Source of the DNA: Pseudomonadota bacterium
GTDB taxonomy: Bacteria > Pseudomonadota > Alphaproteobacteria > 16-39-46
Direction: 5' to 3'
Assembly: GCA_018242545.1 (NCBI GenBank)
Contig: JAFEBT010000002.1
Coordinates: 4,973 to 68,972, forward strand
DNA: 64,000 nucleotides
In this document: in pieces, positions 1 through 59,341 of the stretch
How the letters are laid out: each line of letters starts with the position of its first letter
Numbering within the stretch: position 1 is the first letter of the stretch
Program-made: the position numbers and the translations under genes
Notes under the pieces: model-generated
Told to the model about the DNA's origin: nothing
What the model saw: the letters and a program-made list of their open reading frames with translations, nothing else
The model's database searches: none

Positions 1-203
1 GTTACCGCAGAAGTTATAATAAGATGGATATTCCCTTGCTCCAAAATATAAGAGACTTCGTCATAAGAATCTGAAGCTTTTTCTTTGTATCCTATAATAT
101 TAAATCCAAACCCCTGCTTAAGAAAATATACAAATTGAAAAGCATTTGCGACATAGAGTTCAATATAATCAAGTCCCTTAATTGATAAGTGTTCAGTTTG
201 CAT
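1..203 (-). CDS. 4-hydroxyphenylpyruvate dioxygenase family (HPPD or hydroxymandelate synthase HmaS), N-terminal fragment; gene runs off the window start
   Basis: Minus-strand translation from the ATG at 203 gives MQTEHLSIKGLDYIELYVANAFQFVYFLKQGFGFNIIGYKEKASDSYDEVSYILEQGNIHLIITSAV. This matches the HPPD N-terminal vicinal-oxygen-chelate pattern (fDHvEfyVgNA.q.a.fy...GF...ay.g.etg......vlrqg.i.fvltS). The ORF is open to position 1. Confidence 0.6.
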   Translation of the reverse strand, partial: MQTEHLSIKGLDYIELYVANAFQFVYFLKQGFGFNIIGYKEKASDSYDEVSYILEQGNIHLIITSAV

Positions 204-269
204 TAAAAATATCTTTATGAAGGTTATTTACTGAAAGGAAAGAAACTTTCTCTTTAAATAGATAAAAAA

Positions 270-503
270 TTAAGCTACCTCTATTTCATCTTTATTTGCA
301 GCCTTAGCCATTTGTTCTTTTAAGCTACGAGGTCTCATATCCGACCAATTCTCTTTAATATAAGCAAGACACTCCTCTTTCGTTCCAGTTGTCCCAACTT
401 CACTCCATCCATAAGGAATCTCTTTTCTAACAGGCCATATTGAATACTGATCTTCTATGTTAATAACGACTCTCCATACTTCATTAGAATCTGGTCCCCA
501 CAT
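270..503 (-). CDS. MbtH-like protein (NRPS accessory)
   Basis: 77 aa. Carries the MbtH signature: conserved Trp residues, SIWP and PYGW motifs ([27 protein letters not shown]). Confidence 0.85.
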
Positions 504-717
504 TTTTACTCCTATTTGTTCTGCATTATATAAAAACAGTTATATTTTCATTTTATGAAAATCTCGATGATCTTAATTTTTAGAATAATATGAAATTTAT
601 TTCAAACTATTTTTTATAAAGTAAAACTTTTCTTCTTTATTCCTTAGCTTCTTAAAAAGTTTTTCGTTATGTTAACTTAACGTGTTCATTAAAAATTAAG
701 GAACCATTAGGAAAAAG

Positions 718-2490
718 ATGCACGAGGTTCATGCAAAAGAAGCGCTTTTCTATATTTATAAAATGATTCGACCATTTTATTGGTCTTTTACTATTATGCT
801 CTTAGTTGCAATAGCATGGGCTATTGATTTATCTTTAAGGCCTTATCTTCTTAAAGTTATTTTAGACCGTCTTAACCAATCTCCTTCCCAAGAAGCTTTT
901 AAATATATAGCTTATCCTTTATTAATTTACTTTTTTTTATCATTTTTTCATACAAGTATGTTTCGTCTCTATAATTATTTTGTAGAGATCAAAATGATAC
1001 CTGCTTTGCATAAAAAAATAACAAATTCCATATTTTCTTATATGATAAAGCATGATCATTCTTATTACCAAAATAATTTTTCTGGAAGCTTAGCAAATAA
1101 AATTAATGACTTAAAAAACAGTATACCCGACATCGTACGAATTTTTATTGATCGATTTTTAAGTCATATTTTAGGGCTTGCAGTTGCAATTTTTACTCTT
1201 TGGCATGTGCGAATTGAATTTGCTTTAGCTATGCTTACTTGGACACTTTTATTCATTGGGGTCGCATTTTTTTGTTCAAAAAGAATCCAACATCTTGCAG
1301 ATAAACAGTCAGAGTTAGGATCAACAGTAACTGGAAAACTTGTTGACATATTGTCAAATATACTTTCAGTAAAGTTATTTTCAAGGCAACGCAAAGAAAA
1401 AGAATCTCTTAATGAAACTCTCCAAGAAGCCCTTAAAGCAGAGAGAAAACTCCAATGGTTTTATTTCTGGATGTGGATTTTTTACGGATATTCTTTTCTT
1501 ATAACACAAGGAATATGTCTTTACTTTCTTATAAAAGGACGAGAACAAGGAATAATCTCTATCGGAGATTTTGCGCTTGTTATGAGTCTTAATATCTCCA
1601 TTGTTGATTTCTTGTGGGGATTAATGCAAGAGTTTTCTCAATTTTCTAAACTCTTAGGGGTAACGATACAAGCACTGCGTACGACAACAATGCCTCATAA
1701 AATTAAAGATAGTCCGAAGGCTTTAGAACTTATGGTTACTAAAGGTAAAATTGTCTTTGACAAAGTTCAATTTTATTATAAAGGTGCAGAACCTTTATTT
1801 AATAAGAGTTCTATTACTATCTTTCCTAGTCAAAAAGTTGGACTTGTAGGCTTTTCAGGCAGCGGTAAATCTACTTTTGTAAATTTAATTTTAAGATTAT
1901 TTGATGTTACAGAAGGACGCATTCTTATTGATGATCAAGATATAAAAAATGTGACTCAAGATAGTTTAAGAGAAGCTATCTCTATAATTCCTCAGGATCC
2001 ATCTTTATTCCATCGAACCTTAATGGAAAACATTCGTTACGGAAAATTAGAAGCTTCTGATGAAGAAGTCATAGAGGCTTCTCAACGTGCTCATGCACAT
2101 GAGTTCATATCTAAGCTGCCTTTAAGGTATGACTCTCTTGTTGGTGAAAGAGGCATAAAACTTTCAGGGGGGCAACGTCAACGTATTGCAATGAGTCGGG
2201 CTATTTTAAAAAATGCCCCTATCCTTATTTTAGATGAAGCCACAAGTCAACTTGATTCTGTAACAGAACATGAGATTCAAGAAAGTCTTTGGAATTTAAT
2301 GAAAGAAAAAACGACCATTATTATTGCTCATCGCCTCTCAACTCTTCTTCGTATGGATCGAATTCTTGTTTTTGATCAAGGTAAAATCATTCAGGATGGA
2401 CCACATAAAGAACTCTTAAAAGGAGGTTTCTATAAAACTTTATGGGAGACGCAAATTGGTGGATTTTTGCCAGAGAAAAAAGATTTGTAA
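718..2490 (+). CDS. ABC transporter, fused permease/ATP-binding exporter (MsbA/cyclic-peptide exporter type)
   Basis: 590 aa. N-terminal 6-TM region, then Walker A GFSGSGKST, ABC signature LSGGQRQRIAMSRA, Walker B ILILDEATS and an H-loop (IAHRLS). Confidence 0.9.
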   Translation: MHEVHAKEALFYIYKMIRPFYWSFTIMLLVAIAWAIDLSLRPYLLKVILDRLNQSPSQEAFKYIAYPLLIYFFLSFFHTSMFRLYNYFVEIKMIPALHKKITNSIFSYMIKHDHSYYQNNFSGSLANKINDLKNSIPDIVRIFIDRFLSHILGLAVAIFTLWHVRIEFALAMLTWTLLFIGVAFFCSKRIQHLADKQSELGSTVTGKLVDILSNILSVKLFSRQRKEKESLNETLQEALKAERKLQWFYFWMWIFYGYSFLITQGICLYFLIKGREQGIISIGDFALVMSLNISIVDFLWGLMQEFSQFSKLLGVTIQALRTTTMPHKIKDSPKALELMVTKGKIVFDKVQFYYKGAEPLFNKSSITIFPSQKVGLVGFSGSGKSTFVNLILRLFDVTEGRILIDDQDIKNVTQDSLREAISIIPQDPSLFHRTLMENIRYGKLEASDEEVIEASQRAHAHEFISKLPLRYDSLVGERGIKLSGGQRQRIAMSRAILKNAPILILDEATSQLDSVTEHEIQESLWNLMKEKTTIIIAHRLSTLLRMDRILVFDQGKIIQDGPHKELLKGGFYKTLWETQIGGFLPEKKDL

Positions 2491-2937
2491 GTCACTCTAA
2501 AATTACTTTACTTCGTAAATAAGATTAACTACCTTTAAATCATTCTCTAATAACGGTAGAGCCTTGGTTTCAATTCACTTAATTAAAAAATGAAGAGTCT
2601 GAAAATGAATCTGTCAAAACATGCTTGTATCCCTTGTCAAGGGGTTGTTTTTCCTTTATCTCTGAAAGAAATTAAACTTTTCTAACAGCTTTAAGGAGAT
2701 TGGAGTCTCAATAAACAAGGCCATCTTGAAAAAACATATTTTTTTGAAAACCTTATAGATCCTATGAATTTTGCGAATAAAATTTGTAAAATTGAAGAGA
2801 AAGAAAGACATCACCCAGATCTTTTTATAAGCTGAGAAAAATGTCGCGTTGAAATCTGGACGCATAAAGCAAATAATCTTACAAAAAGTGACTTTTATTT
2901 AGTAGCTAAAATTGAAGATAAGCTTAATAGTTAAAAA

Positions 2938-3681
2938 ATGAATGCCCTTAAAAAGATAAATTTCTCTAAGAATCTTGTAGAATTGTTTACTATTAATCTT
3001 AAAAAGTTAGACTCTTATCTTCCAAAACTCCTAATGTATCTTTCAGAGAAAGAAAAAATTCAAGCAGATAAATTTCAATTTGAACATTTAAAAAGTAGTT
3101 ATGTTGCTTCACATGGACTTCTAAGAATTTTAATTGGAAATTATCTTTCTTGTTCTCCTTCACAAGTTGAATATACACATAATGAGTTTCAAAAACCTTT
3201 ATGCAAAAATAATCAAAACTTATATTTTAATATGTCGCACTCTCATGAATATGCTTGTTATGCCTTTTCTTTTGGTCATGAGGTCGGAGTTGACATTGAA
3301 TTTATGGATAGTACGATTGGAATAGACGATTTATTGCCTTTAATAACAACTCAAGAAGAGCTACTTATTTTCAATACATTCAATAAAAAAGACAAATCTT
3401 ATTTATTTTATAAAACATGGACTATCAAAGAAGCTTTCGTAAAAGCTTTAGGATTTGGATTGTCATGTCCTCTTTCCAATATAGACACAACTATTTTACC
3501 AAGAAAAAAATTCGAAGTTGTGAGGTACAATACAATACGTAAAAAAGAAATAGATAAAGAATGGACTTTTTCTTCTATCGATCTGATTCCTGATTATCTG
3601 GGAGCGGTTGCTGTTAAAAAGAATAACTCTTACATAAATATGAGGTCCCTTGATTCCTTGGACTTCTCTAAACTAAGTTAG
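2938..3681 (+). CDS. 4'-phosphopantetheinyl transferase, Sfp/EntD type
   Basis: 247 aa with PPTase motifs GVDIE and FYKTWTIKEAFVKALG (W/KEA motif). It sits directly beside the MbtH and ABC exporter genes. Confidence 0.8.
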   Translation: MNALKKINFSKNLVELFTINLKKLDSYLPKLLMYLSEKEKIQADKFQFEHLKSSYVASHGLLRILIGNYLSCSPSQVEYTHNEFQKPLCKNNQNLYFNMSHSHEYACYAFSFGHEVGVDIEFMDSTIGIDDLLPLITTQEELLIFNTFNKKDKSYLFYKTWTIKEAFVKALGFGLSCPLSNIDTTILPRKKFEVVRYNTIRKKEIDKEWTFSSIDLIPDYLGAVAVKKNNSYINMRSLDSLDFSKLS

Positions 3682-4080
3682 AAAAAAATAAGTTTCATAT
3701 TAAACTTTATATTAAGAAAAATTATCCTTATTTTGATGACTATATGATGACTAATTTTTTACAAGGAAATTTATTGTTACTTTAACTAATTGAAAAATAA
3801 GTAATTTTTTGAGAACTTTGAGAAAATATTAACAGACTTAAAATCTGTGGGGTTCTGGCCACCTAGTTTAGTATGATCAATAGAGCATCCCCCTTTAATC
3901 AATATAGTAAATCAAAGAGTGAAAGAGTTCGAAAGGCTTTTACTCTAAAGCTCAATCAATATAAATAGAAGAACAACTATGAAACTATTTTTTTAAAACC
4001 TTATATAAACCTTTTTTATTTTTTAAAAATTAAAAAAGTCTTAGCTTAAACAAAAATCCAAGGAATTTCTCTACTTTTTA

Positions 4081-4155
4081 TGGTGCCGCCGGCGAGGATC
4101 GAACTTGCGACCTCACCCTTACCAAGGGTGTGCTCTACCACTGAGCTACGGCGGC
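4081..4155 (-). tRNA. tRNA-Thr (anticodon GGU)
   Basis: Reverse complement is GCCGCCGTAGCTCAGTGGTAGAGCACACCCTTGGTAAGGGTGAGGTCGCAAGTTCGATCCTCGCCGGCGGCACCA. It forms a cloverleaf with a 7-bp acceptor stem, D-arm GCTC/GAGC, anticodon loop TTGGTAA (GGT), T-arm GTTCGATCC and an encoded CCA. Confidence 0.9.
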
Positions 4156-4471
4156 TCATTAACGTCTAACCTTGTCTATATGGGGTGCACAATGCCATAC
4201 TCCTCAAAAAGATGCAAGATAGGAGTTAAAAAGGAATGATGCTTCCAGAGAAAATAAATTTTAAGCTCCTTTAACCACACTGCTTTACATCAAATAGATT
4301 TAATTCTTCTAAGAGTAGCCAAAAATTCCCTGCCGTCTTATTTTAGATTTCTATGTGGTGGTAGTCTGTTCTTATAATTTTTTGAACGCCTTTAATTTTT
4401 TATTCTTTTCATTTCTTCTCAATTTATGTTTGTTTTTTCTTCTTAAATTTAATGAGCTCTTACAATAAGAA

Positions 4472-4828
4472 TTATCGCGTAGAACAAGGAAAAGAGCTAT
4501 GCCAACAGCCACTTGCAAAGTTGCCTATAAAAGAAATTCCAAATGCCGGAGTTACTTTTTTAGGATCACCAGAAGTAGAAGTATTTCTTTGAACATCCTT
4601 ATTGTCCTTCCTTTTTCCATCACGATCAAAAATCATGGCGCCGGCTTTTATGGATGCATACAAACTTCTATCCCTATAACCATCTATTCCCTCAGAATTT
4701 GCGTTCTCTTGCTTTCTTGAAAGCTTTGTACTTGCGGCATCTAAACCTTTGTCCTCAAGAGAGAAGACAGCATTTTCTCCTAAAATCATCGCTAAAAGAG
4801 AAACCATAATAATCTTTATGTTTTTCAT
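4472..4828 (-). CDS. hypothetical small secreted protein
   Basis: 118 aa with an N-terminal signal peptide (MKNIKIIMVSLLAMILGENAVFS). No recognisable domain. Confidence 0.45.
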   Translation of the reverse strand: MKNIKIIMVSLLAMILGENAVFSLEDKGLDAASTKLSRKQENANSEGIDGYRDRSLYASIKAGAMIFDRDGKRKDNKDVQRNTSTSGDPKKVTPAFGISFIGNFASGCWHSSFPCSTR

Positions 4829-5181
4829 TCTTTTTTTTTATTTTTTATTTTTTTACTTCTTATGAAAAAATCTTTTCTTTTCCTTGTTTTTTTAGACTTC
4901 TCAGAAAAATCTCAGAATGAAATAAGAGGTTTAAATATAAGAGAGAATAGTAAAGTAAACATATTCTATTAAATACCTCATGTCTTTAAAATACAAAAAA
5001 GTTAAAAATTTGTCTAATGTTTTCTAAAATGACTTAAATCTGAGACAAAAGAAAAAGTAAAATAAGGCCTTCTATCTCTATAGTTGCGAAAGACCCTTTT
5101 AGTCTGTATATATTGAGAAGGAATTCAACTTATAAATTCCGTTCAACTTTTTCTTAACTTTAACTTAAAAAAGCTCTTTTT

Positions 5182-5325
5182 ATGACAGAAAAACCTCCCC
5201 TTTCCAAGGACCGAAAGCAACGAGAAGCAGACGCTTTGCGCGCTAATTTACAACGCCGAAAAGAACAAGCACGTGCACGTGTCAAAAAATTAAACCCTCT
5301 AGAACCTTCTTCTTTTCATAGCTAA
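5182..5325 (+). CDS. small basic hypothetical protein (47 aa), possibly DUF4169-like
   Basis: ATG..TAA ORF below the ORF-track threshold, translating to MTEKPPLSKDRKQREADALRANLQRRKEQARARVKKLNPLEPSSFHS. It is Arg/Lys-rich and sits immediately upstream of dcd in a coding-free gap. Confidence 0.3.
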   Translation: MTEKPPLSKDRKQREADALRANLQRRKEQARARVKKLNPLEPSSFHS

Positions 5326-5337
5326 AGGATAAAGATT

Positions 5338-5904
5338 ATGTCGATTCTTTCTGATCATTGGATCCGAGAAATGGCCTTAAACCATGGAATGATTGAACCT
5401 TTTATTGAATCTCAAACAACACGTAATACAATTTCCTTCGGTCTTTCTTCCTATGGGTATGATGCGCGTGTGGCTCCAGAGTTTAAAATTTTTACCAATG
5501 TAGACAATGCTCTTATTGACCCTAAAAATTTTTCTCCAACAAGCTTTGTAGATCGCGAAACAGATGTATGCATCATCCCAGCGAACAGCTTTGTGCTCGC
5601 ACGTACCGTAGAATATTTTCGTATTCCACGGGATGTTCTTGTTATTTGTCTTGGAAAATCCACCTATGCTCGTTGTGGTATTATCGTGAATGTTACACCT
5701 CTTGAGCCTGAATGGGAAGGGCATGTAACTCTTGAGTTTTCCAATACAACGCCTCTTCCTGCAAAAATTTATGCAAATGAAGGCGTCTGTCAATTTCTCT
5801 TTTTTAAAGGAGAACAACCTTGTGATGTTTCTTATAAAGACCGCTCTGGAAAATACATGCATCAACGCGGAATTACGCTTCCAAAATTAAAAACACTTAC
5901 ATAA
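5338..5904 (+). CDS. dcd: dCTP deaminase
   Basis: 188 aa. [14 protein letters not shown]...GYDARV...CQFLFF is a typical Dcd (dUTPase-fold) sequence. Confidence 0.93.
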
Positions 5905-7930: not shown

Positions 7931-9271
7931 ATGTCTATATTCTCAGCTCTTAACAGAGAGCAAAAGGAAGCTGTTGGTCTTCTACAAATTGGAACATTTT
8001 TAGAGTATTTTGACTTGATGCTCTATGTTCATATGGCCGTCTTATTAAATGATTTATTTTTTCCAAAAGCAGATCCTAAAACAGCCGGTCTTCTTACAGC
8101 TTTAGCTTTTTGTTCAACCTATGTTCTTAGACCTTTTGGGGCTCTCTTATTTGGATATATTGGGGATCATATAGGACGTAAAACAACTGTTATTATGACA
8201 ACCATGATGATGGCAACCTCATGCATTATCATGGCCACTCTTCCGACCTATGCTCAAATCGGTATTGTTGCAGCATGGCTTGTTACAATCTGTCGTATTA
8301 TCCAGGGCCTCTCCTCAATGGGAGAAATTATTGGCGCTGAAATATACGTTACGGAAATCACAAAGCCTCCTGTAAGATATCCTGCCGTAGGCTTAATTGG
8401 ATGTGCCTCACGTTTTGGGACAATGGTTGCTCTTGGAATTGCTTATCTTGTTACCTCTTTTGGTTTTGACTGGAGAAACGGTTTTTGGATTGGTGCTGCG
8501 ATTGCCGTTGTTGGGTCTGTTGCACGAACACGGCTTAGGGAAACACCCGACTTTGTGGATATGAAACGCAATGTTAAACAAGCACTTGAACAAGCAAAAG
8601 AACAAGGCATCGGTAAAACTGAAGAACTGCTTAAAATAGAAAAAAAATTTCAAAAAGATACACTTGGATGGAAAATTCTCTTAGCTATTTTCCTTGTTTA
8701 TTCTGGTGCCCCCGTTTGTCTTTATTTTAGTTATATGCACTGCGGAAGCATTTTAAAAACTTCTTTGGGATTAAGCCCAGAAGCTATTATTCATCAAAAT
8801 TTTATTGTTTCTGTTGTTGAATTTCTTTTTATGGTTCTTACTGTTTATCTCAGCTATACAATACACCCCTTAAAAATATTAAAATTTAAAGGGGCCTTAT
8901 TCCTTCCTTTTTTAGTCTTATTTCCTTTTGTTACCAACGATCTCAATTCTTCCTTTATCATGCTTTTAATGCAATGTATAAGTGTATCGTTAACATTAAC
9001 CCCAATTCCAGCTACAGCTGTTTTTATGCAGCACATGCCTGTATTTAGGAGATTTACTTATGCAAGCCTTATCTATGCTCTTTCAAGAGCTCTTATGGCT
9101 GTATTAACATCATTTGGACTCGTTTTTTTAACAGATATTTTGGGACAATGGGGAATCTATTTTATTATGATTCCTGTCACAATCGGATTTCTATGGGGTG
9201 TTTCTCATTTTGAAGAACTTGAACATATTTCTAAGAAATCAGCTTTTTCTAAAATCTTCAAATTCTCTTAA
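7931..9271 (+). CDS. MFS transporter (metabolite:H+ symporter/ProP-like), paralog 1
   Basis: 446 aa with 12 predicted TM segments and the MFS loop motif GYIGDHIGRKTT. Roughly 55-60% identical to the next ORF. Confidence 0.85.
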   Translation: MSIFSALNREQKEAVGLLQIGTFLEYFDLMLYVHMAVLLNDLFFPKADPKTAGLLTALAFCSTYVLRPFGALLFGYIGDHIGRKTTVIMTTMMMATSCIIMATLPTYAQIGIVAAWLVTICRIIQGLSSMGEIIGAEIYVTEITKPPVRYPAVGLIGCASRFGTMVALGIAYLVTSFGFDWRNGFWIGAAIAVVGSVARTRLRETPDFVDMKRNVKQALEQAKEQGIGKTEELLKIEKKFQKDTLGWKILLAIFLVYSGAPVCLYFSYMHCGSILKTSLGLSPEAIIHQNFIVSVVEFLFMVLTVYLSYTIHPLKILKFKGALFLPFLVLFPFVTNDLNSSFIMLLMQCISVSLTLTPIPATAVFMQHMPVFRRFTYASLIYALSRALMAVLTSFGLVFLTDILGQWGIYFIMIPVTIGFLWGVSHFEELEHISKKSAFSKIFKFS

Positions 9272-9330
9272 ATTAAACTCTGTCTTTTGATACTCATATT
9301 TTGATCTTCAGACAAGAAAAGGAACTTTAA

Positions 9331-10632
9331 ATGGACCTCTCTGTACCTCTCAATAAAGAACAAAAAGAAGCTGCTGGCCTCTTACAAGCAGGAACATTTT
9401 TAGAATATTTTGATCTCATGCTTTATGTTCACATGGCTGTGGTTTTAAATGAACTCTTCTTCCCAAAAACAGATCCAAAAACAGCGAGCCTCCTAACAGC
9501 TTTTACCTTCAGTTCGATCTATGTTTTAAGACCTTTGGGAGCTCTTTTATTTGGATATATTGGAGACTGTATTGGTCGAAAAACAACTGTTATTTTAACG
9601 ATGATGCTTATGGCGACATCCTGTATCCTTATTGCAAGTCTTCCCACCTATGACCAAATTGGGATTACAGCTGCATGGCTTGTAACAGCTTGTCGCGTTA
9701 TTCAAGGCATTTCTTCCATGGGAGAAATCATTGGAGCTGAAATTTACCTTACTGAGCTTATCCCTCTTCCTTTAAGATATTGCATTGTAGGACTGATAAG
9801 TTGTGCGTCACGTTTAGGAATGGTAGCGGCCTTAGCAGTTGCTATGCTGATGACGTCCCATGAAATGTTTAATTGGCGTTATGCGTTTTGGGCTGCCGCT
9901 GGGCTTGCCCTTGTTGGCTCTGTTTCAAGAATGAGACTTCGCGAAACCCCCGACTTTTTAAGCCAGAAAAGAGTCCACACTAAAAATGAGATTAAAACCG
10001 AGTCTTCTTCTAAACTTACTTTCATTTCTCAAAAGGTGAATTTTAAGCTTATTATGGCGTCTTTTTTAATTTATTCAGGCCCTCCTGCCTGTCTTTATTT
10101 TATTTATATTTTTTGTGCAGAGATTCTTAAGCAATTGGGACAAACAGGACAACAAATTATTCATCAAAATTTTCTTATTTCAATTGTTGAGTTTATGGTT
10201 CTTTTAGCAACCGTTCTTTTAAGTATTCGTATCCACCCTTTGAAAATTATAAAACTAAAATCCATCTTTTTTCTTATTTTTGCGATCAGCCTTCCTTTCT
10301 TAATGATGCATGCGTTATCTCCCTCTCTCCTTTTTATCATTCAGCTTATAGGGGTTTCTTTGATTTTAACAGCTGTGCCTGCTGTTGCCGCCCTCATTGT
10401 TCATTATCCTATTTATCAACGGTTTAGATATACGAGCATTATTTATGCTCTTGCCCGTGCCTTAATGTCAGTCATCATTGCTTTCGGACTTGTTTTTTTA
10501 ACAGATGCCTTTGGATATTGGGGACTTTCAATGCTTTTAATCCCAGTAACGCTTGGATTTATTTGGGGTGTGACGCACTTTGAAAAGCTTGAAGGACTAA
10601 GAATCCGTTCTCTCAATCCTGAAGTGACCTAA
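9331..10632 (+). CDS. MFS transporter (ProP-like), paralog 2
   Basis: 433 aa. Same architecture and motif (GYIGDCIGRKTT) as the upstream paralog, so this is a tandem duplication. Confidence 0.85.
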   Translation: MDLSVPLNKEQKEAAGLLQAGTFLEYFDLMLYVHMAVVLNELFFPKTDPKTASLLTAFTFSSIYVLRPLGALLFGYIGDCIGRKTTVILTMMLMATSCILIASLPTYDQIGITAAWLVTACRVIQGISSMGEIIGAEIYLTELIPLPLRYCIVGLISCASRLGMVAALAVAMLMTSHEMFNWRYAFWAAAGLALVGSVSRMRLRETPDFLSQKRVHTKNEIKTESSSKLTFISQKVNFKLIMASFLIYSGPPACLYFIYIFCAEILKQLGQTGQQIIHQNFLISIVEFMVLLATVLLSIRIHPLKIIKLKSIFFLIFAISLPFLMMHALSPSLLFIIQLIGVSLILTAVPAVAALIVHYPIYQRFRYTSIIYALARALMSVIIAFGLVFLTDAFGYWGLSMLLIPVTLGFIWGVTHFEKLEGLRIRSLNPEVT

Positions 10633-13256: not shown

Positions 13257-14213
13257 TTGGAGATTCTTAAAATGAAATGTGCATTTGTTTTTCCAGGACA
13301 AGGTTCTCAAACCGTTGGAATGGGACGTGAAATATACGATGCGTTCCCAGAAGCCCGAGACGTTTTTCAAGAAGTTGATGAAGCGTTAGGACAAAACCTC
13401 ACACGATTGATTTTTGAAGGCCCTCAGGAAACACTTACCTTAACTGAAAATGCACAGCCGGCTCTTATGGCTGTGAGTATAGCTCTCTTACGTGTTCTTG
13501 AAAAGGCAAAGTTTGATCTTAAAACATATGTTCAATATTTAGCAGGTCATTCTTTAGGGGAATATTCAGCTCTTTGCGCTGCTCAAACCTTTTCACTCAA
13601 AGAAACAGCAAAACTTCTGCGCCTGCGAGGACAAGCTATGCAAGAAGCCGTGCCTCTTGGAGAAGGAAGCATGGCAGCTCTCCTTGGTCTTGAGCTTGAA
13701 ACAGTCGAAGACTTATTGAAAAATATATCTCTAAAGGATGAAGTTTGTATTATTGCAAATGACAATTCAATGGGTCAGGTTGTTATTAGTGGCCATACAA
13801 AAGCAATTGAGAGCGCTCTCACAGAGGCTACAAATCGCGGCGCCAAACGATGTGTCCTTCTCCCTGTAAGCGCTCCCTTTCATAGCCCTTTAATGGAAAA
13901 AGCAGCTTTAAAAATGAAAGAAGCTCTCGCGCACGTCTCTGGGAAAGATCCAATTATTCCTGTTTTTTCAAATGTTACAGCAGAGCCTATTTCAGATTTT
14001 AAAAAGATACGAGAGCTCCTTTATGAGCAAATCACACATCGTGTTCGGTGGCGCGAAACAATTCTTAATATGGCAACGCTTGGAACGCATACATTAATAG
14101 AAGTTGGGGCTGGAAAAGTTCTCACGGGACTTACAAAACGCATCGATCCTGATATAACAACATATGCACTTAATACCCCTCAAGACATTGAAATCTTTTT
14201 AAAAACACTTTAA
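13257..14213 (+). CDS. fabD: malonyl-CoA:ACP transacylase
   Basis: FVFPGQGSQ and the GHSLGEYSAL active-site motif are present. The true start is probably the MKC at 13272. Confidence 0.95.
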   Translation: MEILKMKCAFVFPGQGSQTVGMGREIYDAFPEARDVFQEVDEALGQNLTRLIFEGPQETLTLTENAQPALMAVSIALLRVLEKAKFDLKTYVQYLAGHSLGEYSALCAAQTFSLKETAKLLRLRGQAMQEAVPLGEGSMAALLGLELETVEDLLKNISLKDEVCIIANDNSMGQVVISGHTKAIESALTEATNRGAKRCVLLPVSAPFHSPLMEKAALKMKEALAHVSGKDPIIPVFSNVTAEPISDFKKIRELLYEQITHRVRWRETILNMATLGTHTLIEVGAGKVLTGLTKRIDPDITTYALNTPQDIEIFLKTL

Positions 14214-14248
14214 TAAAACCAATAACATCTTTAAATAAAGGAGAAGAC

Positions 14249-14986
14249 ATGTTTAATCTTTCGCATAAAATAGCCCTTGTAACAGGAGCTTCGGGAGCCC
14301 TGGGAGCCGCCATTGCCACGCTTTTTCATGAAAGAGGTGCTTTTGTTATTCTTTCAGGAACACGCCAAGACGCTCTTGATTCTTTAGCACAAACACTCGC
14401 TGAACGGGTTCTTGTCTTACCTTGTGACCTCTCAAAAGCAGAAGAAACCAATACCCTTATTGCGCGCGCTGAAGAAAGTGTTGGCCATATTGATATTCTT
14501 GTCAATAACGCCGGATTGACAGCTGATGGGCTTCTTATGCGTATGAAAGATGAAGATTGGGCTCGGGTTTTAGAAGTTAATTTAACAGCCACTTTCAGGC
14601 TTACACGTGCCGTTTTAAGGTCCATGATGAAAAATCGTTTTGGACGGATTTTGAATATTACTTCTGTCGTGGGCGTTTCTGGCAATGCAGGCCAAACAAA
14701 TTATGCTGCAAGCAAAGCAGGCCTCATTGGATTTTCTAAATCTCTTGCTCTTGAAGTTGCCTCGAGAGGAATTACTGTCAATTGTATTGCGCCAGGATTT
14801 ATTGGCTCTCCGATGACGGAAGTTCTTTCAGAAACCATAAAAGACCAAATTCTTAAATCCATTCCCATGGGACAAATGGGGGTAGCAAAGGATATTGCAA
14901 ATGCAGCTTTATTTCTTGCAAGTGATGAATCATCTTATATAACAGGACAAACACTTCATGTGAATGGTGGGATGTTAATGGTATAG
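14249..14986 (+). CDS. fabG: 3-oxoacyl-ACP reductase
   Basis: SDR fold with TGASGALG Rossmann motif and catalytic YAASKAG. Confidence 0.95.
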   Translation: MFNLSHKIALVTGASGALGAAIATLFHERGAFVILSGTRQDALDSLAQTLAERVLVLPCDLSKAEETNTLIARAEESVGHIDILVNNAGLTADGLLMRMKDEDWARVLEVNLTATFRLTRAVLRSMMKNRFGRILNITSVVGVSGNAGQTNYAASKAGLIGFSKSLALEVASRGITVNCIAPGFIGSPMTEVLSETIKDQILKSIPMGQMGVAKDIANAALFLASDESSYITGQTLHVNGGMLMV

Positions 14987-15163
14987 TTTTTTGGGTCTAT
15001 CTCATTTAAAAAGTCTTTACAAAAAGTGTTTGAAGCGTCATAAAGGGCAATATGCTTAAATTTTACATTTATCTTAAGCATGAAACCATGCTTAAATGAA
15101 ACAAGCAGCTGAGCCTTAAAGGCTTAGCATTGATATAATTTTTAATGAAAAAGGACGAACGAG

Positions 15164-15394
15164 ATGAGTGATGTTACTGAAAGAGTCAAGAAAATTGTTG
15201 TTGAACATTTAGGCGTAGATGCCTCAAAAGTAACCGAGAACGCAAGCTTCATTGATGATTTAGGTGCAGACAGTCTTGATACCGTTGAACTTGTCATGGC
15301 CTTCGAAGAAGAATTTGGATGTGAAATTCCAGATGAAGCTGCTGAAAAAATCTTAACTGTTCGTGATGCTATCGCATTCTTAGAACAAAAGTAA
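15164..15394 (+). CDS. acpP: acyl carrier protein
   Basis: 76 aa containing [20 protein letters not shown], with the phosphopantetheine-attachment Ser in DSLD. Confidence 0.97.
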
Positions 15395-15437
15395 AAAGTC
15401 CCATTTTTTAATCCGAACGGGAAAATGTACTTAAAAA

Positions 15438-15477
15438 TTTTGATTAAAAAACCCACAAACGAAGTTTTTTAATCAAA
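15438..15477 (+). terminator. perfect 13-bp inverted repeat (TTGATTAAAAAAC / GTTTTTTAATCAA) between acpP and fabF; candidate acpP terminator/attenuator
   Basis: The hairpin is read directly from the sequence. Partial termination after acpP is well established in E. coli. Confidence 0.45.
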
Positions 15478-15528
15478 AGAATTCTAAGATACTTAGATTT
15501 TGGGTATTTATTTTTTTAAGGAACAATC

Positions 15529-16794
15529 ATGCGACGTGTTGTTATTTCAGGTCTTGGTCTTGTAACTCCACTTGGAGTAGGCGTCCCTTATGTATGGGAG
15601 CGCCTTATTTCTGGGCACTCCGGTATTCAAAAAATAACCTCTTTTGAGACCGAAGACCTTCCGACTAAAATTGCAGGACAAGTCCCGCGCGGAACCACCC
15701 CAGGGTCTCTCAACATTGAAGATTTTGTAAGCCCAAAAGATCAAAAAAAGATGGGGGGTTTTATTCTATATGCTTTAGCAGCCGCAAGTGAGGCCTTAAA
15801 AGATGCCAATTGGGCTCCAACAGATTCAGAATCTTTGGAACGCACAGGTGTGCTTATTGGAGCGGGCATCGGGGGACTTCTTGAAATTGCAAATAATGCT
15901 CTTGCGCTTGAGTCTCAAGGTCCGCGCAGAGTAAGTCCTTTTTTTATTGTTTCTTCTCTTATTAACTTAGCTTCCGGCCAAGTTTCTATTAAGTATGGGT
16001 TTAAAGGGCCCAATCATTCCGTTGTCACTGCCTGTGCGACAGGTGCGCATGCCATTGGAGATGCTGCAAGACTGATCCAATATGGAGACGCTGATGTTAT
16101 GATTGCAGGGGGAGCTGAATCTACCGTATGTCGACTTGGGATTTCAGGGTTTAACGCTGCACGGGCTCTTTCAACGCAATACAATGATATGCCTACAAAA
16201 GCATCGCGTCCTTGGGATAAAGGTCATGATGGGTTTGTTATGGGAGAAGGAGCGGGTATTGTCGTTCTTGAAGAGTATGAACATGCCAAAAAACGGGGAG
16301 CTCCTATTTATGCTGAAGTTTTAGGGTATGGTCTTTCGAGCGATGCCCATCATATAACTGCTCCTGCAGAAGATGGAGATGGCGCTTTCCGAGCCATGAA
16401 AAACGCTCTCAGAAATGCAAATCTTTCGTCCGAAACAATTAATTACATTAATGCACATGGCACAGCGACACCGCCCGGTGATCGTGCTGAACTCCAAGCC
16501 GTGGGAAGGCTCATGGGAAACAATCGTCATCAGGTTTCCATGTCTTCTACAAAATCTTCCATCGGACACCTTTTAGGTGCTGCAGGAGGTGTAGAAGCCA
16601 TTTTTACAATTTTAGCGCTTAAACACCAAATTGTGCCTCCTACACTTAATCTTGAAAACCCACTAGATGAAGCTCAAGGATTTGATCTTGTTCCTTTAAA
16701 AGCAAAAGAAAGAAAGGTTCAATTTGCAATTTCAAATTCATTTGGATTTGGAGGGACAAATGCTGCTCTTGTTCTTGGGAACTTAATATCATAA
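15529..16794 (+). CDS. fabF: 3-oxoacyl-ACP synthase II
   Basis: 421 aa with the active-site TACATGAHAIG, plus HGTATPPGD and GHLLGAAGG motifs. Confidence 0.95.
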   Translation: MRRVVISGLGLVTPLGVGVPYVWERLISGHSGIQKITSFETEDLPTKIAGQVPRGTTPGSLNIEDFVSPKDQKKMGGFILYALAAASEALKDANWAPTDSESLERTGVLIGAGIGGLLEIANNALALESQGPRRVSPFFIVSSLINLASGQVSIKYGFKGPNHSVVTACATGAHAIGDAARLIQYGDADVMIAGGAESTVCRLGISGFNAARALSTQYNDMPTKASRPWDKGHDGFVMGEGAGIVVLEEYEHAKKRGAPIYAEVLGYGLSSDAHHITAPAEDGDGAFRAMKNALRNANLSSETINYINAHGTATPPGDRAELQAVGRLMGNNRHQVSMSSTKSSIGHLLGAAGGVEAIFTILALKHQIVPPTLNLENPLDEAQGFDLVPLKAKERKVQFAISNSFGFGGTNAALVLGNLIS

Positions 16795-19568: not shown

Positions 19569-20972
19569 TCAGAATCCCCTTAAAAAATATTTCTTTTCTG
19601 GATCATTATCGTTTCTTTTGATTTCTAGGATGACCCCTTTGTTAAGAAGCTCTATAAGGGATGCCCGCACTTGTCGAGTTGACATACCAATGGAATCTGC
19701 TATTTGCTTTGTTGAAAGGCCAGATGAATCTTCTAATAAATCTCTGATTTTTTGCTCAGTTGAAGAAAGTTTTTCTTCATGAATTTTTTTCTTAAACAAT
19801 GTAACTCGAAAAGATGTTCCAATTTCTTCAAACGTTGGCTTTTGCAAGCCTGCTGATTCACATGCGTCTATAATGCGATGAACTCCGCTTCCCCAACGTT
19901 CAATAAGTTTTAATTCATGAAAAACTCTAGAAATTACTCGATTCCTAATTTTGGACACTCCTGAATAAAAGTTATCGAAAGTCATTCCAAATGGCAAAAG
20001 CCCAGGATTTTCAATTTCAAGTCGGTCATTGTAAAGAGCAATTCTAATAGGAGATCCACCGAGACTATAATCACAATGCAAAAGTGCATTTATCAGGCTT
20101 TCTCTCACTGCAACTTGTGGCAAAGACCATTCTTCTTTGTGTTGCAGATCATTAATATGAATAGAAACGTTTAAATGTTTGCGTATAAACATCATCGCTT
20201 CTGGAATAGCGATCACAAAAGGAACATGGATTTCTTGAGAATCAATAATATGAGCTCTTGTTTCCCCTTGGAAACTACCAGCTTGAATCCACGCATCAGG
20301 TAGGTATCGAGCTTTGTTTTTTGAAAACAAAAGAACTCCACCATAAGTGACAGGACATGATTTTGCAGAATCATGCTCTCTATCTGCAAGAACGCCCATA
20401 GTCATCAGGTTTTCTGTCTTAAGTTTTCGAACAGTGGGAAAAGCACCTTTGACAAGATCCATATCAATATCTTTTATAGAAGACCCAGGAGCCTCTAGCT
20501 CATCAAAGAGTTTGGGACTTTTAGTGCGTCTTAAAGACTCAATCATGAAAGAATCCGCCACTCTATTGGTGGACCCGACACGTACATAAGTTGAAGAGGA
20601 CTCTCCCTTAAGCTTGAAATGGTAAGGACGAGAATTTCCAGGAAATACCTCGATTATCAACAAGTCTTTCCCTTGGTAAGAAATAGTTTCAATATTTGGA
20701 ACAACGAGGGGTTCAATAGAATCATATATAGAAGATGCTAGTTTTTCTTCTGCTTGCTGAACATTCTCAATCCCTTTGATTACTTTAGTTTTATCTTCAA
20801 TTCCCAATACTATTTTTCCACCAGATGTATTAGAAAAAGAGATGATCGTTGTCAGAATTTTTTGAATAGGATCGACTGTTTCCTTGAATTCAAGGACTTT
20901 ACTTTCATTTTGAGTAAGAGTTTTTTCTATATTCATACTCTGAAATTTACTCTGAAGTAACTCTGAAGTCAA
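19569..20972 (-). CDS. ATP-binding putative transcriptional regulator (AlbA_2 divergent-AAA DNA-binding domain + HATPase_c_4/RecG-C-terminal-like + C-terminal winged HTH)
   Basis: 467 aa. The N-terminus (ESKVLEFKETVD...ISFSNTSGGKIVLGIEDKTKVIKGI) matches the AlbA_2 pattern. The C-terminus (LSTKQIADSIGMSTRQVRASLIELLNKGVILE) is an HTH. Confidence 0.75.
   Translation of the reverse strand: MTSELLQSKFQSMNIEKTLTQNESKVLEFKETVDPIQKILTTIISFSNTSGGKIVLGIEDKTKVIKGIENVQQAEEKLASSIYDSIEPLVVPNIETISYQGKDLLIIEVFPGNSRPYHFKLKGESSSTYVRVGSTNRVADSFMIESLRRTKSPKLFDELEAPGSSIKDIDMDLVKGAFPTVRKLKTENLMTMGVLADREHDSAKSCPVTYGGVLLFSKNKARYLPDAWIQAGSFQGETRAHIIDSQEIHVPFVIAIPEAMMFIRKHLNVSIHINDLQHKEEWSLPQVAVRESLINALLHCDYSLGGSPIRIALYNDRLEIENPGLLPFGMTFDNFYSGVSKIRNRVISRVFHELKLIERWGSGVHRIIDACESAGLQKPTFEEIGTSFRVTLFKKKIHEEKLSSTEQKIRDLLEDSSGLSTKQIADSIGMSTRQVRASLIELLNKGVILEIKRNDNDPEKKYFLRGF
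20937..20972. repeat. three tandem 11-13-bp units containing CTCTGAAG at the 5' end (first codons) of the AlbA_2-family gene
   Basis: aCTCTGAAattta CTCTGAAGtaa CTCTGAAGtcaa. This is the same motif and orientation as the block at 19531-19564. Confidence 0.7.
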
Positions 20973-22288: not shown

Positions 22289-22837
22289 ATGACAGAAAGT
22301 ACCCAACATCTTCTTGAAAAAATTCGTCCACCACGTGTCGAAATTACATACGACGTTGAAATTGGTGATGCCATTATTATGAAACAACTTCCTTTTGTTG
22401 TTGGAATTATGGCTGATCTTTTGGGCGTTCCTTTAAATCCACCCACCAAACTTAAAGACCGAAAATTCATAGAAATTGATTCCGGTAGCTTTAATACTGT
22501 TATGGGAAAAATGGCACCTACGCTTCCTTTGCGCGTTCCAAACGTGCTTACGAATGAGGGAGGAGACCTTAATATACTCCTTACATTCAATACAATGGAT
22601 GATTTTAACCCTATCAATATCGCAGGGCAAGTTCCCGAGCTCAATCAACTTTTGACAGCGCGTCAACATCTTTCTGATCTCTTAACAAAGTTAGACGGAA
22701 ATGATACGTTAGATGGGTATCTCCAGGAAATTATTGCAAGCTCAGCTCTCCAAAAGAGCCTCCAAGGCGAGGTTCAAGCTGAAACCGCACAAGCAGACGC
22801 AAAGCCAGGTGATGTTCAACCAAAATCATCTACTTAA
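22289..22837 (+). CDS. tssB: type VI secretion contractile sheath small subunit TssB (VipA)
   Basis: 182 aa. PRVEITYDVEIGDAIIMKQLPFVVGIMADL...LLTFNTMDDFNPINI is a typical TssB (DUF770) sequence. Confidence 0.9.
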   Translation: MTESTQHLLEKIRPPRVEITYDVEIGDAIIMKQLPFVVGIMADLLGVPLNPPTKLKDRKFIEIDSGSFNTVMGKMAPTLPLRVPNVLTNEGGDLNILLTFNTMDDFNPINIAGQVPELNQLLTARQHLSDLLTKLDGNDTLDGYLQEIIASSALQKSLQGEVQAETAQADAKPGDVQPKSST

Positions 22838-22898
22838 TAAGTTACATTCGTCATTTAAATAAAGTAAAAAATCTAAACGAGACGGGGAGTACGAAAGA

Positions 22899-24380: not shown

Positions 24381-24462
24381 TCCTCACCTTTAAAAAAATT
24401 CTAAAAAATAAAAAATGCTCACCAACTTATAGATTTTCTAAAATCGATGCGGGAGAAATACC

Positions 24463-24960: not shown

Positions 24961-25001
24961 AGAGGACAAACAAAAATAAGAAATATATTCATGAAAACCA
25001 T

Positions 25002-25637: not shown

Positions 25638-25651
25638 AATTTTGTTCTTCC

Positions 25652-56943: not shown

Positions 56944-56997
56944 TTGACACAACAAGAGAATACCAATATATTCAAATAATGAATATAATTTGAATAT
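56944..56997 (+). promoter_or_regulatory. sigma70-like promoter (TTGACA-17 nt-TATATT) overlapped by ARG-box-like TGAAT/ATTCA half-site cluster, upstream of the arginine ABC transporter operon and divergent from argR
   Basis: ttgTTGACAcaacaagagaataccaaTATATTcaaataaTGAATataattTGAATAtgg, read directly. The E. coli ARG box consensus is TNTGAATWWWWATTCANW. Confidence 0.45.
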
Positions 56998-57007
56998 GGA
57001 GCCAATT

Positions 57008-58368: not shown

Positions 58369-58369
58369 T

Positions 58370-59026: not shown

Positions 59027-59041
59027 TTAAAAGAAAATTTT

Positions 59042-59334: not shown

Positions 59335-59341
59335 ATTATTT

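Follow-up and report, generated by a model that had tools for sequence, protein, structure and literature searches.

Helper genes at the probable edge of a nonribosomal-peptide gene cluster in an uncultured alphaproteobacterium

Results

Genes in the first 3.7 kb

The window (the whole 64-kb stretch of DNA analyzed) comes from an uncultured, intracellular-type alphaproteobacterium. Its first 3.7 kb (1-3681) holds what appear to be helper genes of a nonribosomal-peptide pathway (Table 1). On the minus strand the gene for an MbtH-like protein stands in tandem with the start of a gene of the 4-hydroxyphenylpyruvate dioxygenase (HPPD) family; diverging from them on the plus strand are genes for an ABC exporter, a decayed pterin dehydratase and an Sfp-type phosphopantetheinyl transferase (PPTase). 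The HPPD-family, MbtH, ABC exporter, PPTase and tRNA-Thr genes are all found where a preliminary description of this DNA had placed them.

Table 1. Features at the start of the window.
Feature	Position	Strand	Evidence
HPPD-family gene, first 67 codons	1..203	-	TIGR01263 match; runs off window start
MbtH-like protein, 77 aa	270..503	-	PF03621
AT-rich divergent intergenic region, MbtH/ABC	504..717		sequence
Fused TMD-NBD ABC exporter, ABCB/MsbA-like half-transporter, 590 aa	718..2490	+	PF00664 + PF00005
Pterin-4a-carbinolamine dehydratase (PCD) pseudogene	2605..2935	+	comparison with intact L082 gene
Sfp-type (group II) 4'-phosphopantetheinyl transferase, 247 aa	2938..3681	+	PF01648 + PF22624
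tRNA-Thr (anticodon GGU)	4081..4155	-	ARAGORN; Rfam RF00005, 68.2 bits

The MbtH-like protein scores 68.3 bits against its Pfam model (cut-off 27; E 3.9e-19), carries the signature NxExQxSxWP...PxGW...WxDxRP, and is named 'MbtH family NRPS accessory protein' in NCBI record MBS0184838.1. The HPPD-family reading frame starts with an ATG at 203-201 and stays open to base 3, giving 67 residues (MQTEHLSIKGLDYIELYVANAF...); comparison with the NCBIfam 4HPPD model matched positions 2-55 (E 1.9e-6), and a Pfam search with the 67-residue fragment returned no match. Since the MbtH gene stands 66 bp upstream of this gene on the same strand, the two are probably co-transcribed. A scan of the divergent intergenic region for consensus promoters gave no more sites than shuffled sequence.

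The ABC protein, which is 100% identical to MBS0184839.1, consists of ABC_membrane and ABC_tran domains; its best NCBIfam models are MsbA-related (MsbA_rel, 340.8 bits), none reaching the equivalog cut-off. The PPTase combines ACPS (E 4e-15) and AASDHPPT_N (E 2e-7) domains, shows the motifs GVDIE and WTIKEAFVKA, and finds its best NCBIfam model in HetI. A gene for a fatty-acid acyl carrier protein is also present in the window, at about 15 kb. The PCD pseudogene, which the preliminary description did not list, is 76% identical over 107 amino acids to the intact gene of a related locus, L082 (PF01329, E 2.1e-26), relative to which it has three in-frame stops (TTA to TAA, CAA to TAA, TGG to TGA) and one deleted codon.

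Related loci carry the synthetases

L082 is the closest relative, with 83% nucleotide identity over window positions 265-3669. Its genes run PPTase, PCD, ABC and then, divergently, MbtH, CmlA_N and a nonribosomal peptide synthetase (NRPS) with Formyl_trans_N/C and Condensation domains; the ABC/MbtH junction is kept. Two further loci, L086 and L087, match window positions 7-509 at 78-86% nucleotide identity. Recurrent partners in related loci are MbtH, an Sfp-type PPTase, a CmlA-like beta-hydroxylase, TauD, a type II thioesterase and megasynthases with C, A, PCP and TE domains; the megasynthases are confirmed in L001, L004, L007 and L086. A PPTase gene adjoins the cluster in L002, L003, L005, L006, L008, L014, L037, L082 and L096. 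These recurring arrangements support the assignment of the MbtH and PPTase genes, proposed in the preliminary description, to a family of NRPS-type clusters.

The whole 64-kb window contains no C, A, PCP, TE, CmlA, TauD, aminotransferase or FMN-dependent dehydrogenase (FMN_dh) gene, and its position 1 is probably a contig end. On the basis of the comparisons among loci we consider it likely that positions 1-3681 are one edge of an NRPS cluster, belonging to a family common to uncultured, probably intracellular alphaproteobacteria (Holosporales-like organisms and Rickettsiales MAGs).

The HPPD-family gene probably encodes 4-hydroxymandelate synthase

Because only 67 N-terminal residues fall within the window, the catalytic C-terminal domain lying outside it, we infer the diagnostic residues for this genome from those read in orthologues. 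The fragment has a single close homologue, P0138, which is also its best match (69% identity, E 2.4e-22; next best, 50%); window positions 256-7 share 78% nucleotide identity with the start of the P0138 gene in L086 and L087. In both loci aminotransferase and FMN_dh genes follow P0138, the full order in L086 being NRPS (A-PCP-TE), MbtH, P0138, Aminotran_1_2, FMN_dh, and then CmlA_N and TauD. The trio of HPPD-like, aminotransferase and FMN_dh genes recurs beside MbtH, CmlA and a formyl-domain NRPS in L006, L008, L014/L106, L133 and L144.

P0138 and eight other cluster-linked homologues all preserve His187, His270 and Glu349 as metal ligands, and all nine have Val in place of Asn245 and Ile in place of Phe364 (SaHPPD numbering). 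Canonical HPPD matches retain Asn245 and Phe364; both positions are Ile in the solved structures of 4-hydroxymandelate synthase (HmaS), 2r5v and 3zgj. This active site, together with the adjoining aminotransferase and FMN_dh genes, lends good support to the earlier guess of HmaS, and the gene probably encodes that enzyme.

A genuine HPPD, active in tyrosine catabolism or in the formation of pyomelanin, with the PCD as a remnant of phenylalanine/tyrosine degradation, would account for the match of the N-terminus to the 4HPPD equivalog model and for the higher scores of cluster-linked homologues against the solved HPPD 1t47 (230 bits) than against the HmaS 2r5v (194 bits). Phenylalanine hydroxylase is, moreover, the normal partner of PCD. 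We regard this reading as very improbable: against it stand the HmaS-like substitutions at positions 245 and 364, the short distance to MbtH on the same strand, and the neighbors of P0138, which are not hmgA or fahA. Neither a homogentisate-pathway nor a phenylalanine hydroxylase gene occurs among the scanned ORFs of the window (a set that leaves aside six ORFs of 180 aa or more at 56990-63982).

The ABC exporter: cluster gene or neighbor

The family of the ABC exporter is as first described, but its proposed role in export of the product is weakened. Homologues do stand beside NRPS genes in L082 (88% identity), L081 (69%), and L003 and L007 (52-53%); others, at 65% identity (L083, L085), lie among housekeeping genes, and source names at about 62% are those of Wolbachia proteins. 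The housekeeping contexts of the approximately 65%-identical orthologues make a role as product exporter doubtful, and membership of the gene in the cluster is uncertain.

The ABC gene, and perhaps the PCD, may instead be ordinary chromosomal neighbors, with biosynthesis confined to the MbtH-HmaS operon and the PPTase; this possibility, which concerns one part of the block and is compatible with its being a cluster edge, falls somewhat short of an even chance. It is favored by the existence of about 120 ABC homologues at 58-70% identity, some source-named Wolbachia, and by the surroundings of the 65%-identical P0005 and P0006, which adjoin MazG, LysR, GroES/EL, ATP synthase and RecO genes and have no NRPS gene closer than 10 kb. 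In less closely related versions of the cluster the ABC gene is of a different family (about 30% identity), and a nonsense codon in the L082 copy is apparently tolerated. On the other side, the divergent ABC/MbtH junction is kept in L082, L003 and L007 despite ABC identities of 52-88%, and the closest homologue outside the species group, P0002 (69%), sits at the end of an NRPS cluster.

A working cluster or an eroded one

This lineage may have lost or fragmented its synthetase, leaving MbtH, HPPD-like and PPTase genes as orphans that are pseudogenising or reused (the PPTase, for example, priming the fatty-acid acyl carrier protein). Decay is evident in the PCD pseudogene within the block and in several relatives: the ABC gene of L082 has a premature TGA, L091 retains a thioesterase and CmlA between four transposase fragments with no NRPS, in L086 the thioesterase is truncated and an IS1595 transposase is present, and the HPPD-like and PPTase genes are split in L005 and L014. 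No cluster gene occurs elsewhere in the 64-kb window, and among the best 120 matches no CmlA orthologue carries the NCBI organism name of this MAG.

Nevertheless, MbtH, ABC, PPTase and the 67 visible HPPD-like codons are all intact. The ratio dN/dS is 0.06-0.08 for MbtH (against L082 and L086), 0.24 for the PPTase (against L082) and 0.29 for the HmaS N-terminus (against relatives); this range of 0.06-0.29 indicates continuing purifying selection. In addition, MAG binning and short-read assembly often drop NRPS contigs (PMC10132079). We judge erosion to be unlikely.

The tRNA-Thr gene

The block ends as first noted, with 400 bp between the PPTase stop and the tRNA-Thr gene. The suggestion that this gene marks the insertion point of a genomic island, the block being the island's end, found no specific support, and we hold it to be quite unlikely. 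The comparison covers the near side, the distal end of the putative island lying outside the available sequence. Consistent with an island, the cluster is on the 3' side of the tRNA, synteny with L082 ends at the PPTase stop (window 3669), and backbone synteny with 'Alphaproteobacteria bacterium 16-39-46' begins only at window 5074, the contigs of the latter ending about 0.4 kb beyond; three integrase-family genes adjoin the L081 cluster. Yet positions 1-5400 contain neither an integrase nor a repeat of the tRNA 3' end, and a tRNA gene is found in none of the 17 related cluster loci.

Composition, which the preliminary description had proposed as a check, deviates mildly. GC-content of the PPTase and ABC genes is 0.29-0.33, against 0.38 +/- 0.03 in 38 other ORFs (2-3 SD below the window mean), as an island might show; GC3 is approximately 0.22 against 0.27 +/- 0.03, no more than about 1.5 SD apart, and equal AT-richness occurs in some housekeeping genes.

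Discussion

Proposed pathway

If the block is indeed a cluster edge, orthologues, together with what is already established about these families, suggest a pathway. HmaS would convert 4-hydroxyphenylpyruvate to 4-hydroxymandelate, which an FMN-dependent oxidase (Hmo-like) and an aminotransferase (HpgT-like) would take on to 4-hydroxyphenylglycine (Hpg); the genes for these two are predicted to lie downstream of HmaS, outside the window, in the arrangement seen in L086 and L087. MbtH would bind and activate NRPS adenylation domains, and the PPTase would convert apo carrier domains to the holo form. The synthetase, which in relatives begins with a formyltransferase domain and is partnered by CmlA-like and TauD-like hydroxylases and a type II thioesterase, is expected either on the far side of window position 1 or on a separate contig. 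The product may be exported by the ABC protein, or that protein may be no more than a conserved neighbor.

Comparison with known systems

That such a cluster is unexpected in a genome of this kind, as the preliminary description held, is an overstatement: NRPS clusters are already known from Rickettsiales symbionts, having been published for Ca. Megaira, Ca. Tisiphia and Rickettsia buchneri (PMC9098888, PMC10132079). Those clusters, of NRPS or NRPS/PKS type (Ca. Megaira MegNEIS296, Ca. Tisiphia RiCimp and R. buchneri), resemble the present case in placing secondary-metabolite synthetases in alphaproteobacteria that are reduced and host-associated, with products unknown and a role in defense proposed; the two papers give no gene-level description that can be matched to this cluster family. 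The CmlA-like protein of L082 shares 84% identity with one source-named Ca. Tisiphia. A T6SS makes the present genome look Holosporales-like (PMC11909080); the terms 'ribosomal peptide' and 'polyketide' are never used in a 2025 Holosporales review.

The MbtH-like protein resembles others of PF03621 in length (77 aa), Pfam score and conserved Trp/Pro signature, and in all close relatives it adjoins NRPS genes, as expected of a partner of adenylation domains; it differs in that the available sequence of this genome holds no adenylation domain. The PPTase shares with Sfp/HetI-type (group II) enzymes the two-domain, 247-aa architecture, the GxD and WxxKEA motifs and HetI as best model, but its 118 bits fall far short of the 370 bits required for a HetI equivalog. 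Like linear gramicidin synthetase LgrA (PDB 5es5, 6mfy), the first NRPS gene of relatives opens with Formyl_trans_N and Formyl_trans_C followed by condensation-like and adenylation domains; this start belongs to relatives only (L003, L007, L008, L014, L082), outside the window, and their gene content (CmlA, TauD, HmaS) is unlike that of the gramicidin locus.

A close parallel would be the HmaS-Hmo-HpgT pathway for Hpg in NRPS clusters of actinomycetes (chloroeremomycin/vancomycin, CDA). Shared features are the HPPD fold, the 2-His-1-Glu ligands, a hydrophobic residue at Asn245 and Ile at Phe364 (as read in orthologues), the FMN-dependent dehydrogenase and class I/II aminotransferase adjoining in L086 and L087, and the location of the genes within an NRPS cluster with MbtH. 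An adenylation domain with an Hpg-type specificity code, by contrast, was not found among the few sampled from relatives. Compared with the HmaS structures of Amycolatopsis orientalis (2r5v) and Streptomyces coelicolor (3zgj), the alphaproteobacterial proteins have Val rather than Ile at 245 and VxV or PxV in place of TLI. Their overall scores are also higher with HPPD 1t47 than with actinomycete HmaS, and they may therefore represent an independent HmaS-like lineage.

Genes of the block

The family matches and coordinates establish the identity and order of the genes in the block, and every feature that the preliminary description had named in the first 4.2 kb is present where it had been placed. 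The HPPD-family fragment matches model positions 2-55 of TIGR01263 (the NCBIfam 4-hydroxyphenylpyruvate dioxygenase model; E 1.9e-6), while a Pfam scan of the same 67 codons gave no match; the gene begins 66 bp downstream of MbtH, on the same strand. The MbtH protein scores 68.3 bits against its Pfam family (cut-off 27, E 3.9e-19), covers profile positions 7-53 of 53 and shows in translation the signature with three invariant tryptophans, NxExQxSxWP ... PxGW ... WxDxRP. The two domains of the phosphopantetheinyl transferase (PPTase) are AASDHPPT_N (PF22624, residues 31-109) and ACPS (PF01648, residues 116-224). At 118.2 bits against the HetI equivalog model NF042922, under the cut-off of 370, this protein is HetI-like and not the HetI equivalog; for the ABC exporter no NCBIfam model reaches its equivalog cut-off. 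Identical proteins of the metagenome-assembled genome (MAG) are deposited at NCBI for ABC (MBS0184839), MbtH (MBS0184838), dcd (MBS0184843) and MurA (MBS0184844), and the NCBI record already labels the accessory genes correctly, for example as 'MbtH family NRPS accessory protein'.

Features of the block and of the remainder of the window (window positions)
Feature	Position	Strand	Basis or remark
HPPD-family gene, start	203-201 (ATG), open to window edge	minus	67 codons, MQTEHLSIKGLDYIELYVANAF...; NCBIfam model match
MbtH, 77 aa	270-503	minus	PF03621
ABC exporter, fused TMD-NBD, 590 aa	718-2490	plus (divergent from MbtH)	best models MsbA-related
PCD pseudogene	2605-2935	plus	protein comparison with intact gene of a relative
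PPTase, two-domain, Sfp/HetI-like, 247 aa	2938-3681		PF22624 + PF01648
tRNA-Thr(GGU)	4081-4155	minus	
ORF, 118 aa	4472-4828	minus	hydrophobic N-terminus (possible signal peptide)
Two tandem MFS transporter paralogues	7931-10632	plus	
fabD, fabG, fabF	13257-16794	plus	gap where acpP is expected, between fabG and fabF
Schlafen/AlbA_2 + HATPase_c_4 protein	19569-20972	minus	
Type VI secretion gene set	22289-28991	plus	TssB/VipA, TssC/VipB, Hcp-like gene, TssF, TssG
Four large ORFs (702, 780, 533, 507 aa)	after the type VI genes, to 37910		no Pfam match
ATPase_2 (AAA) protein	54035-55471	plus	AT-rich, GC 0.32

Relatives of the block

The block had been read as the tail of a nonribosomal peptide synthetase (NRPS) cluster. 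Comparison with homologous loci from other genomes (L-handles) and homologous proteins (P-handles) indicates from the relatives' gene content that this reading is largely right but incomplete; a pseudogene described below had been overlooked. The closest relative, L082, is a 9.9-kb contig of GCA_964881915.1 with 83% DNA identity to window 265-3669. Its genes run in the order MFS, PPTase, intact PCD (pterin-4a-carbinolamine dehydratase) and ABC, followed divergently by MbtH, a CmlA-type diiron beta-hydroxylase and an NRPS gene in which formyltransferase domains come first and a condensation-like region follows. Collinearity with the window ends just past the MbtH stop codon, CmlA standing in L082 where the window has the HPPD-like gene. 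In L086 the order is an NRPS A-PCP-TE terminal module, MbtH, the HPPD-like protein P0138, a class I/II aminotransferase, an FMN-dependent dehydrogenase, CmlA, an IS1595 transposase, a thioesterase fragment, TauD and HtpG.

A recurrent set of genes (MbtH, CmlA, a formyl-domain NRPS, TauD, a type II thioesterase, an HPPD-like protein, an aminotransferase, FMN_dh, PPTase and an ABC transporter) is found in L003, L005, L006, L008, L014/L106, L058, L133 and L144. True megasynthases are confirmed in the relatives L001, L004, L007 and L086, and MbtH has an NRPS adenylation-domain partner in L081, L082 and L086. The best match to MbtH in a scan of GTDB genomes is 77%, and matches in a metagenome scan are 79% or less. 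MbtH and CmlA have relatives under the labels Alphaproteobacteria, Paracaedibacteraceae and Rickettsiaceae. Identity of the CmlA-like protein ranges from 70 to 88% over many MAGs and is 84% for a protein named Ca. Tisiphia, which hints at horizontal spread.

Two further features of these neighborhoods were noted. In four lineages (L003, L085, L086 and L091) the cluster genes, or the ABC orthologue, have an HtpG (HSP90) gene no more than a few kb away. The MFS gene of L082, which directly follows the PPTase, is 39-40% identical to the window's MFS genes, and the more distant clusters of L006 and L008 carry an MFS gene inside.

A probable HmaS-type enzyme

Two enzymes are candidates for the truncated gene: catabolic HPPD and 4-hydroxymandelate synthase (HmaS). 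A full HMMER search of 1.8 billion representatives with the 67-aa fragment returned only one close homologue, P0138 (359 aa, 69% identity, E 2.4e-22), which is encoded on both L086 and L087; the next best match is at 50%. Nothing was found in a metagenome scan of JGI contigs, and the fragment has no match in a collection of 5.8 billion proteins; the full-length HPPD-like protein is therefore not on record, and the source contig probably ends at window base 1. Across window 7-509 the DNA identity to L086/L087 is 86% for MbtH and 78% for the HPPD-like start together with the 50 bp upstream.

Gunsior 2004, O'Hare 2006 and Brownlee 2008 are said to have found that HmaS differs from HPPD at a few active-site positions. 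Conserved residues tell the two enzymes apart, Ile236 and Ile355 being listed in the pocket of S. coelicolor Hms (PMC3720870). The corresponding positions (245 and 364 in SaHPPD numbering) were read in nine cluster-linked homologues, P0138 among them, in solved structures and in canonical HPPD matches to the same query. The cluster-linked homologues have Val at 245 and Ile at 364, the solved HmaS structures 2r5v and 3zgj have Ile at both, and the canonical HPPD matches (P0142, P0143 and P0230) have Asn and Phe. In the solved sequences, HPPD 1t47 reads KFPINEP and GNFKALF, and the two HmaS read TLIEP and SNIKAL. The iron ligands His187, His270 and Glu349 are kept in all nine cluster-linked homologues.

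Immediately after P0138, L086 and L087 carry genes of the Hmo (FMN-dependent oxidase) and HpgT (aminotransferase) type, which also occur in L006, L008, L014, L133 and L144; for the window's gene they would lie beyond window position 1. Taken together, the HmaS-type residues and the adjoining aminotransferase and FMN_dh genes point to the HmaS-HpgT-Hmo route to 4-hydroxyphenylglycine (Hpg). We infer that the window's gene, of which residues 1-67 are present, encodes HmaS, the diagnostic residues being those of its homologues; the choice of HmaS over catabolic HPPD is backed by relatives of a protein whose N-terminus alone lies in the window. A search for a catabolic context found no hmgA, fahA or phhA among the scanned ORFs of the window; six ORFs with lengths of 180 aa or more, at 56990-63982, fall outside that set. 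Most known hydroxyphenylglycine pathways come from actinomycete antibiotics. Overall, the cluster-linked HPPD-like proteins give better scores with HPPD than with actinomycete HmaS, and therefore may form an independent HmaS-like lineage.

Adenylation-domain codes in the relatives

Among the relatives, the readable codes are those predicted for Gln (DAWQFGLIDK) and Thr (DFWNIGMVHK), for an Asn-like residue and for a terminal residue of beta-Ala-like type (VDAVFSIADK); the starter module of L007 has an unassigned code, DSALTAEVA-. No Hpg-type code occurs among the readable adenylation domains, which are few. In the terminal A domain of L086 (2-2407, adjoining MbtH) and the stand-alone A-PCP of L081 (421-2244) the code Asp is shifted by one (FVDH). 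The codes of these domains are VDAVFSIADK and VDGFESRAIK, with YGSSE or FGSTE in place of YGPTE; we take them to resemble beta-alanine-type codes.

The ABC exporter

That the ABC gene encodes an exporter of fused TMD-NBD type agrees with the preliminary description; the role in product export assigned to it there is less secure, orthologues being found also in housekeeping contexts. Homologues adjoining NRPS genes include P0002 (69% identity) and those of L082 (88%) and L003/L007 (52-53%), with the same divergent ABC/MbtH junction, and the gene is cluster-adjacent in L003, L007, L081 and L082. However, the family is large and well conserved, with about 120 matches at 58-70% identity, some of them named Wolbachia. 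P0005 and P0006 (65% to the window's protein) lie among housekeeping genes, a context found at L083, L084 and L085, and more distant clusters carry an unrelated ABC of about 30% identity. From these comparisons a role in product export is possible but unproven.

A PCD pseudogene, and the state of the cluster

What looks like a 450-bp 'spacer' separating the PPTase gene from the ABC gene is a PCD pseudogene. Its protein identity to the intact gene of L082 is 76%, and relative to that gene two codons have become TAA (from TTA and from CAA), one has become TGA (from TGG) and one is deleted. PCD genes adjoin MbtH/ABC/PPTase genes in three other lineages (L082 3354-3692; L093, which equals L001, 6992-7306; and L096 82-357), one of them labelled Gammaproteobacteria; no pterin-dependent hydroxylase was seen. 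At codon 251 of the L082 ABC gene (about L082 4837), TGG for a conserved Trp has changed to TGA, so that the gene is called in two parts; the change is either decay or a sequencing error. Changes from TGG to TGA at a conserved Trp in both genes raised the possibility that TGA is read as Trp. This was rejected because, besides the TGA, two TAA stops and a deletion occur in the window's PCD, and because TGA terminates 7 of 42 long ORFs, the long ORFs being intact under table 11.

No C-A-PCP synthetase or adenylation domain is present in the 64-kb window. A tblastn search of the window with NRPS, CmlA, TauD, thioesterase, aminotransferase and FMN_dh queries found only the HPPD-like start and PCD, the other matches being MFS and short-chain dehydrogenase paralogues. 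As far as the evidence goes, the window carries accessory genes only. A real, if unlikely, alternative is that the block is the remnant of a cluster. This reading stays live because the neighborhood is eroding in the group. PCD is dead in the window, the L082 ABC gene is interrupted, genes are split in L005 and L014, and L091 retains only a thioesterase and CmlA amid transposase fragments; moreover, none of the 120 best CmlA matches bears this MAG's NCBI organism name. Against it, dN/dS relative to L082 and L086 is low (0.06-0.08 for MbtH, 0.24 for PPTase and 0.29 for the HPPD-like N-terminus), and the intact genes are therefore under purifying selection.

For a working cluster, the comparisons suggest the following scheme. 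MbtH and HmaS would be co-transcribed; HmaS, Hmo and HpgT would convert 4-hydroxyphenylpyruvate to 4-hydroxyphenylglycine; MbtH would serve as chaperone of the adenylation domains, and the PPTase would prime the carrier domains. An NRPS that starts with a formyl domain would build the peptide, together with hydroxylases of the CmlA and TauD types and an editing thioesterase. A consensus promoter scan gave site numbers no higher than those of shuffled sequence.

The tRNA-Thr gene and the island hypothesis

The tRNA-Thr gene had been pointed out as a common kind of insertion point for islands. Some features fit an island that comprises the block: the PPTase stop marks the end of synteny with L082, the backbone is syntenic with 'Alphaproteobacteria bacterium 16-39-46' (79% nt) only from window 5074 on, and the ABC and PPTase genes have a GC 2-3 SD below average (0.29-0.33 against 0.38 +/- 0.03). 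However, GC3 is only about 1.5 SD low (0.22 against 0.27 +/- 0.03), MbtH does not depart from the genome mean, and AT content is as high in some housekeeping genes. Window 1-5400 contains neither an integrase ORF nor a repeat derived from the 3' end of the tRNA, the search for direct and inverted repeats gave only AT-rich chance matches, and none of the 17 related loci carries a tRNA. Mobility genes adjoining the relatives' clusters, where present, are transposases and tyrosine recombinases. The island reading is unlikely, and tRNA-Thr is best treated as a neighbor of the block.

Two independent contigs of 'Alphaproteobacteria bacterium 16-39-46', L089 (424-) and L090 (355-), both end about 0.4 kb beyond window 5074, which suggests a variable or repeat-rich junction. 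The 118-aa ORF, which falls between the tRNA and dcd in a stretch without synteny, has no family match.

The rest of the window and the source organism

Outside the block the window consists of housekeeping genes, among them dcd, murA, two MFS genes, map, fabD-fabG-fabF, gmk and secB. An AcpS-type PPTase was not seen in it, and the Sfp-type enzyme might also prime the fatty-acid ACP. Domains of the Schlafen/AlbA_2, HATPase_c_4 and ATPase_2 types, present in two proteins (Table), often occur in defence or mobile contexts. The four large ORFs after the type VI secretion (T6SS) genes may encode effectors or divergent parts of that system. According to a 2025 review (PMC11909080), nearly all Holosporales genomes share a conserved T6SS, and the window's genes fit the system reported there as typical. 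The bacterium is most likely of a Holosporales-like lineage, and its earlier designation as a host-associated alphaproteobacterium is reasonable.

A possible cluster family shared among symbionts

A more tentative reading, in which we place less than even confidence, is that the block is the visible edge of an undescribed, horizontally mobile family of NRPS clusters. The family would comprise a formyl-domain starter, CmlA/TauD beta-hydroxylases, a distinct proteobacterial HmaS lineage supplying 4-hydroxyphenylglycine, MbtH, PPTase and often PCD. It would move between Holosporales-like and Rickettsiaceae endosymbionts, its copies being in many stages of IS-mediated rearrangement and decay, and its product would be a peptide common to the symbionts and directed at hosts or competitors. 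We found no published description of this MbtH/CmlA/formyl-domain-NRPS/HmaS-like family, and the terms 'ribosomal peptide' and 'polyketide' are absent from the 2025 Holosporales review (PMC11909080).

If the synthetase is intact, an uncultured symbiont-type alphaproteobacterium makes a nonribosomal peptide, probably with 4-hydroxyphenylglycine and beta-hydroxylated residues, alongside the T6SS encoded in the window. If the lineage is truly separate, enzymology would gain a second, sequence-distinct HmaS. NRPS and NRPS/PKS clusters with unknown products have already been described from Ca. Megaira, Ca. Tisiphia and Rickettsia buchneri (PMC9098888, PMC10132079). A conserved hydroxyphenylglycine pathway in reduced intracellular bacteria would strengthen the case for chemically mediated defensive or host-manipulating symbioses, of the kind already proposed for Ca. 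Megaira and Ca. Tisiphia.
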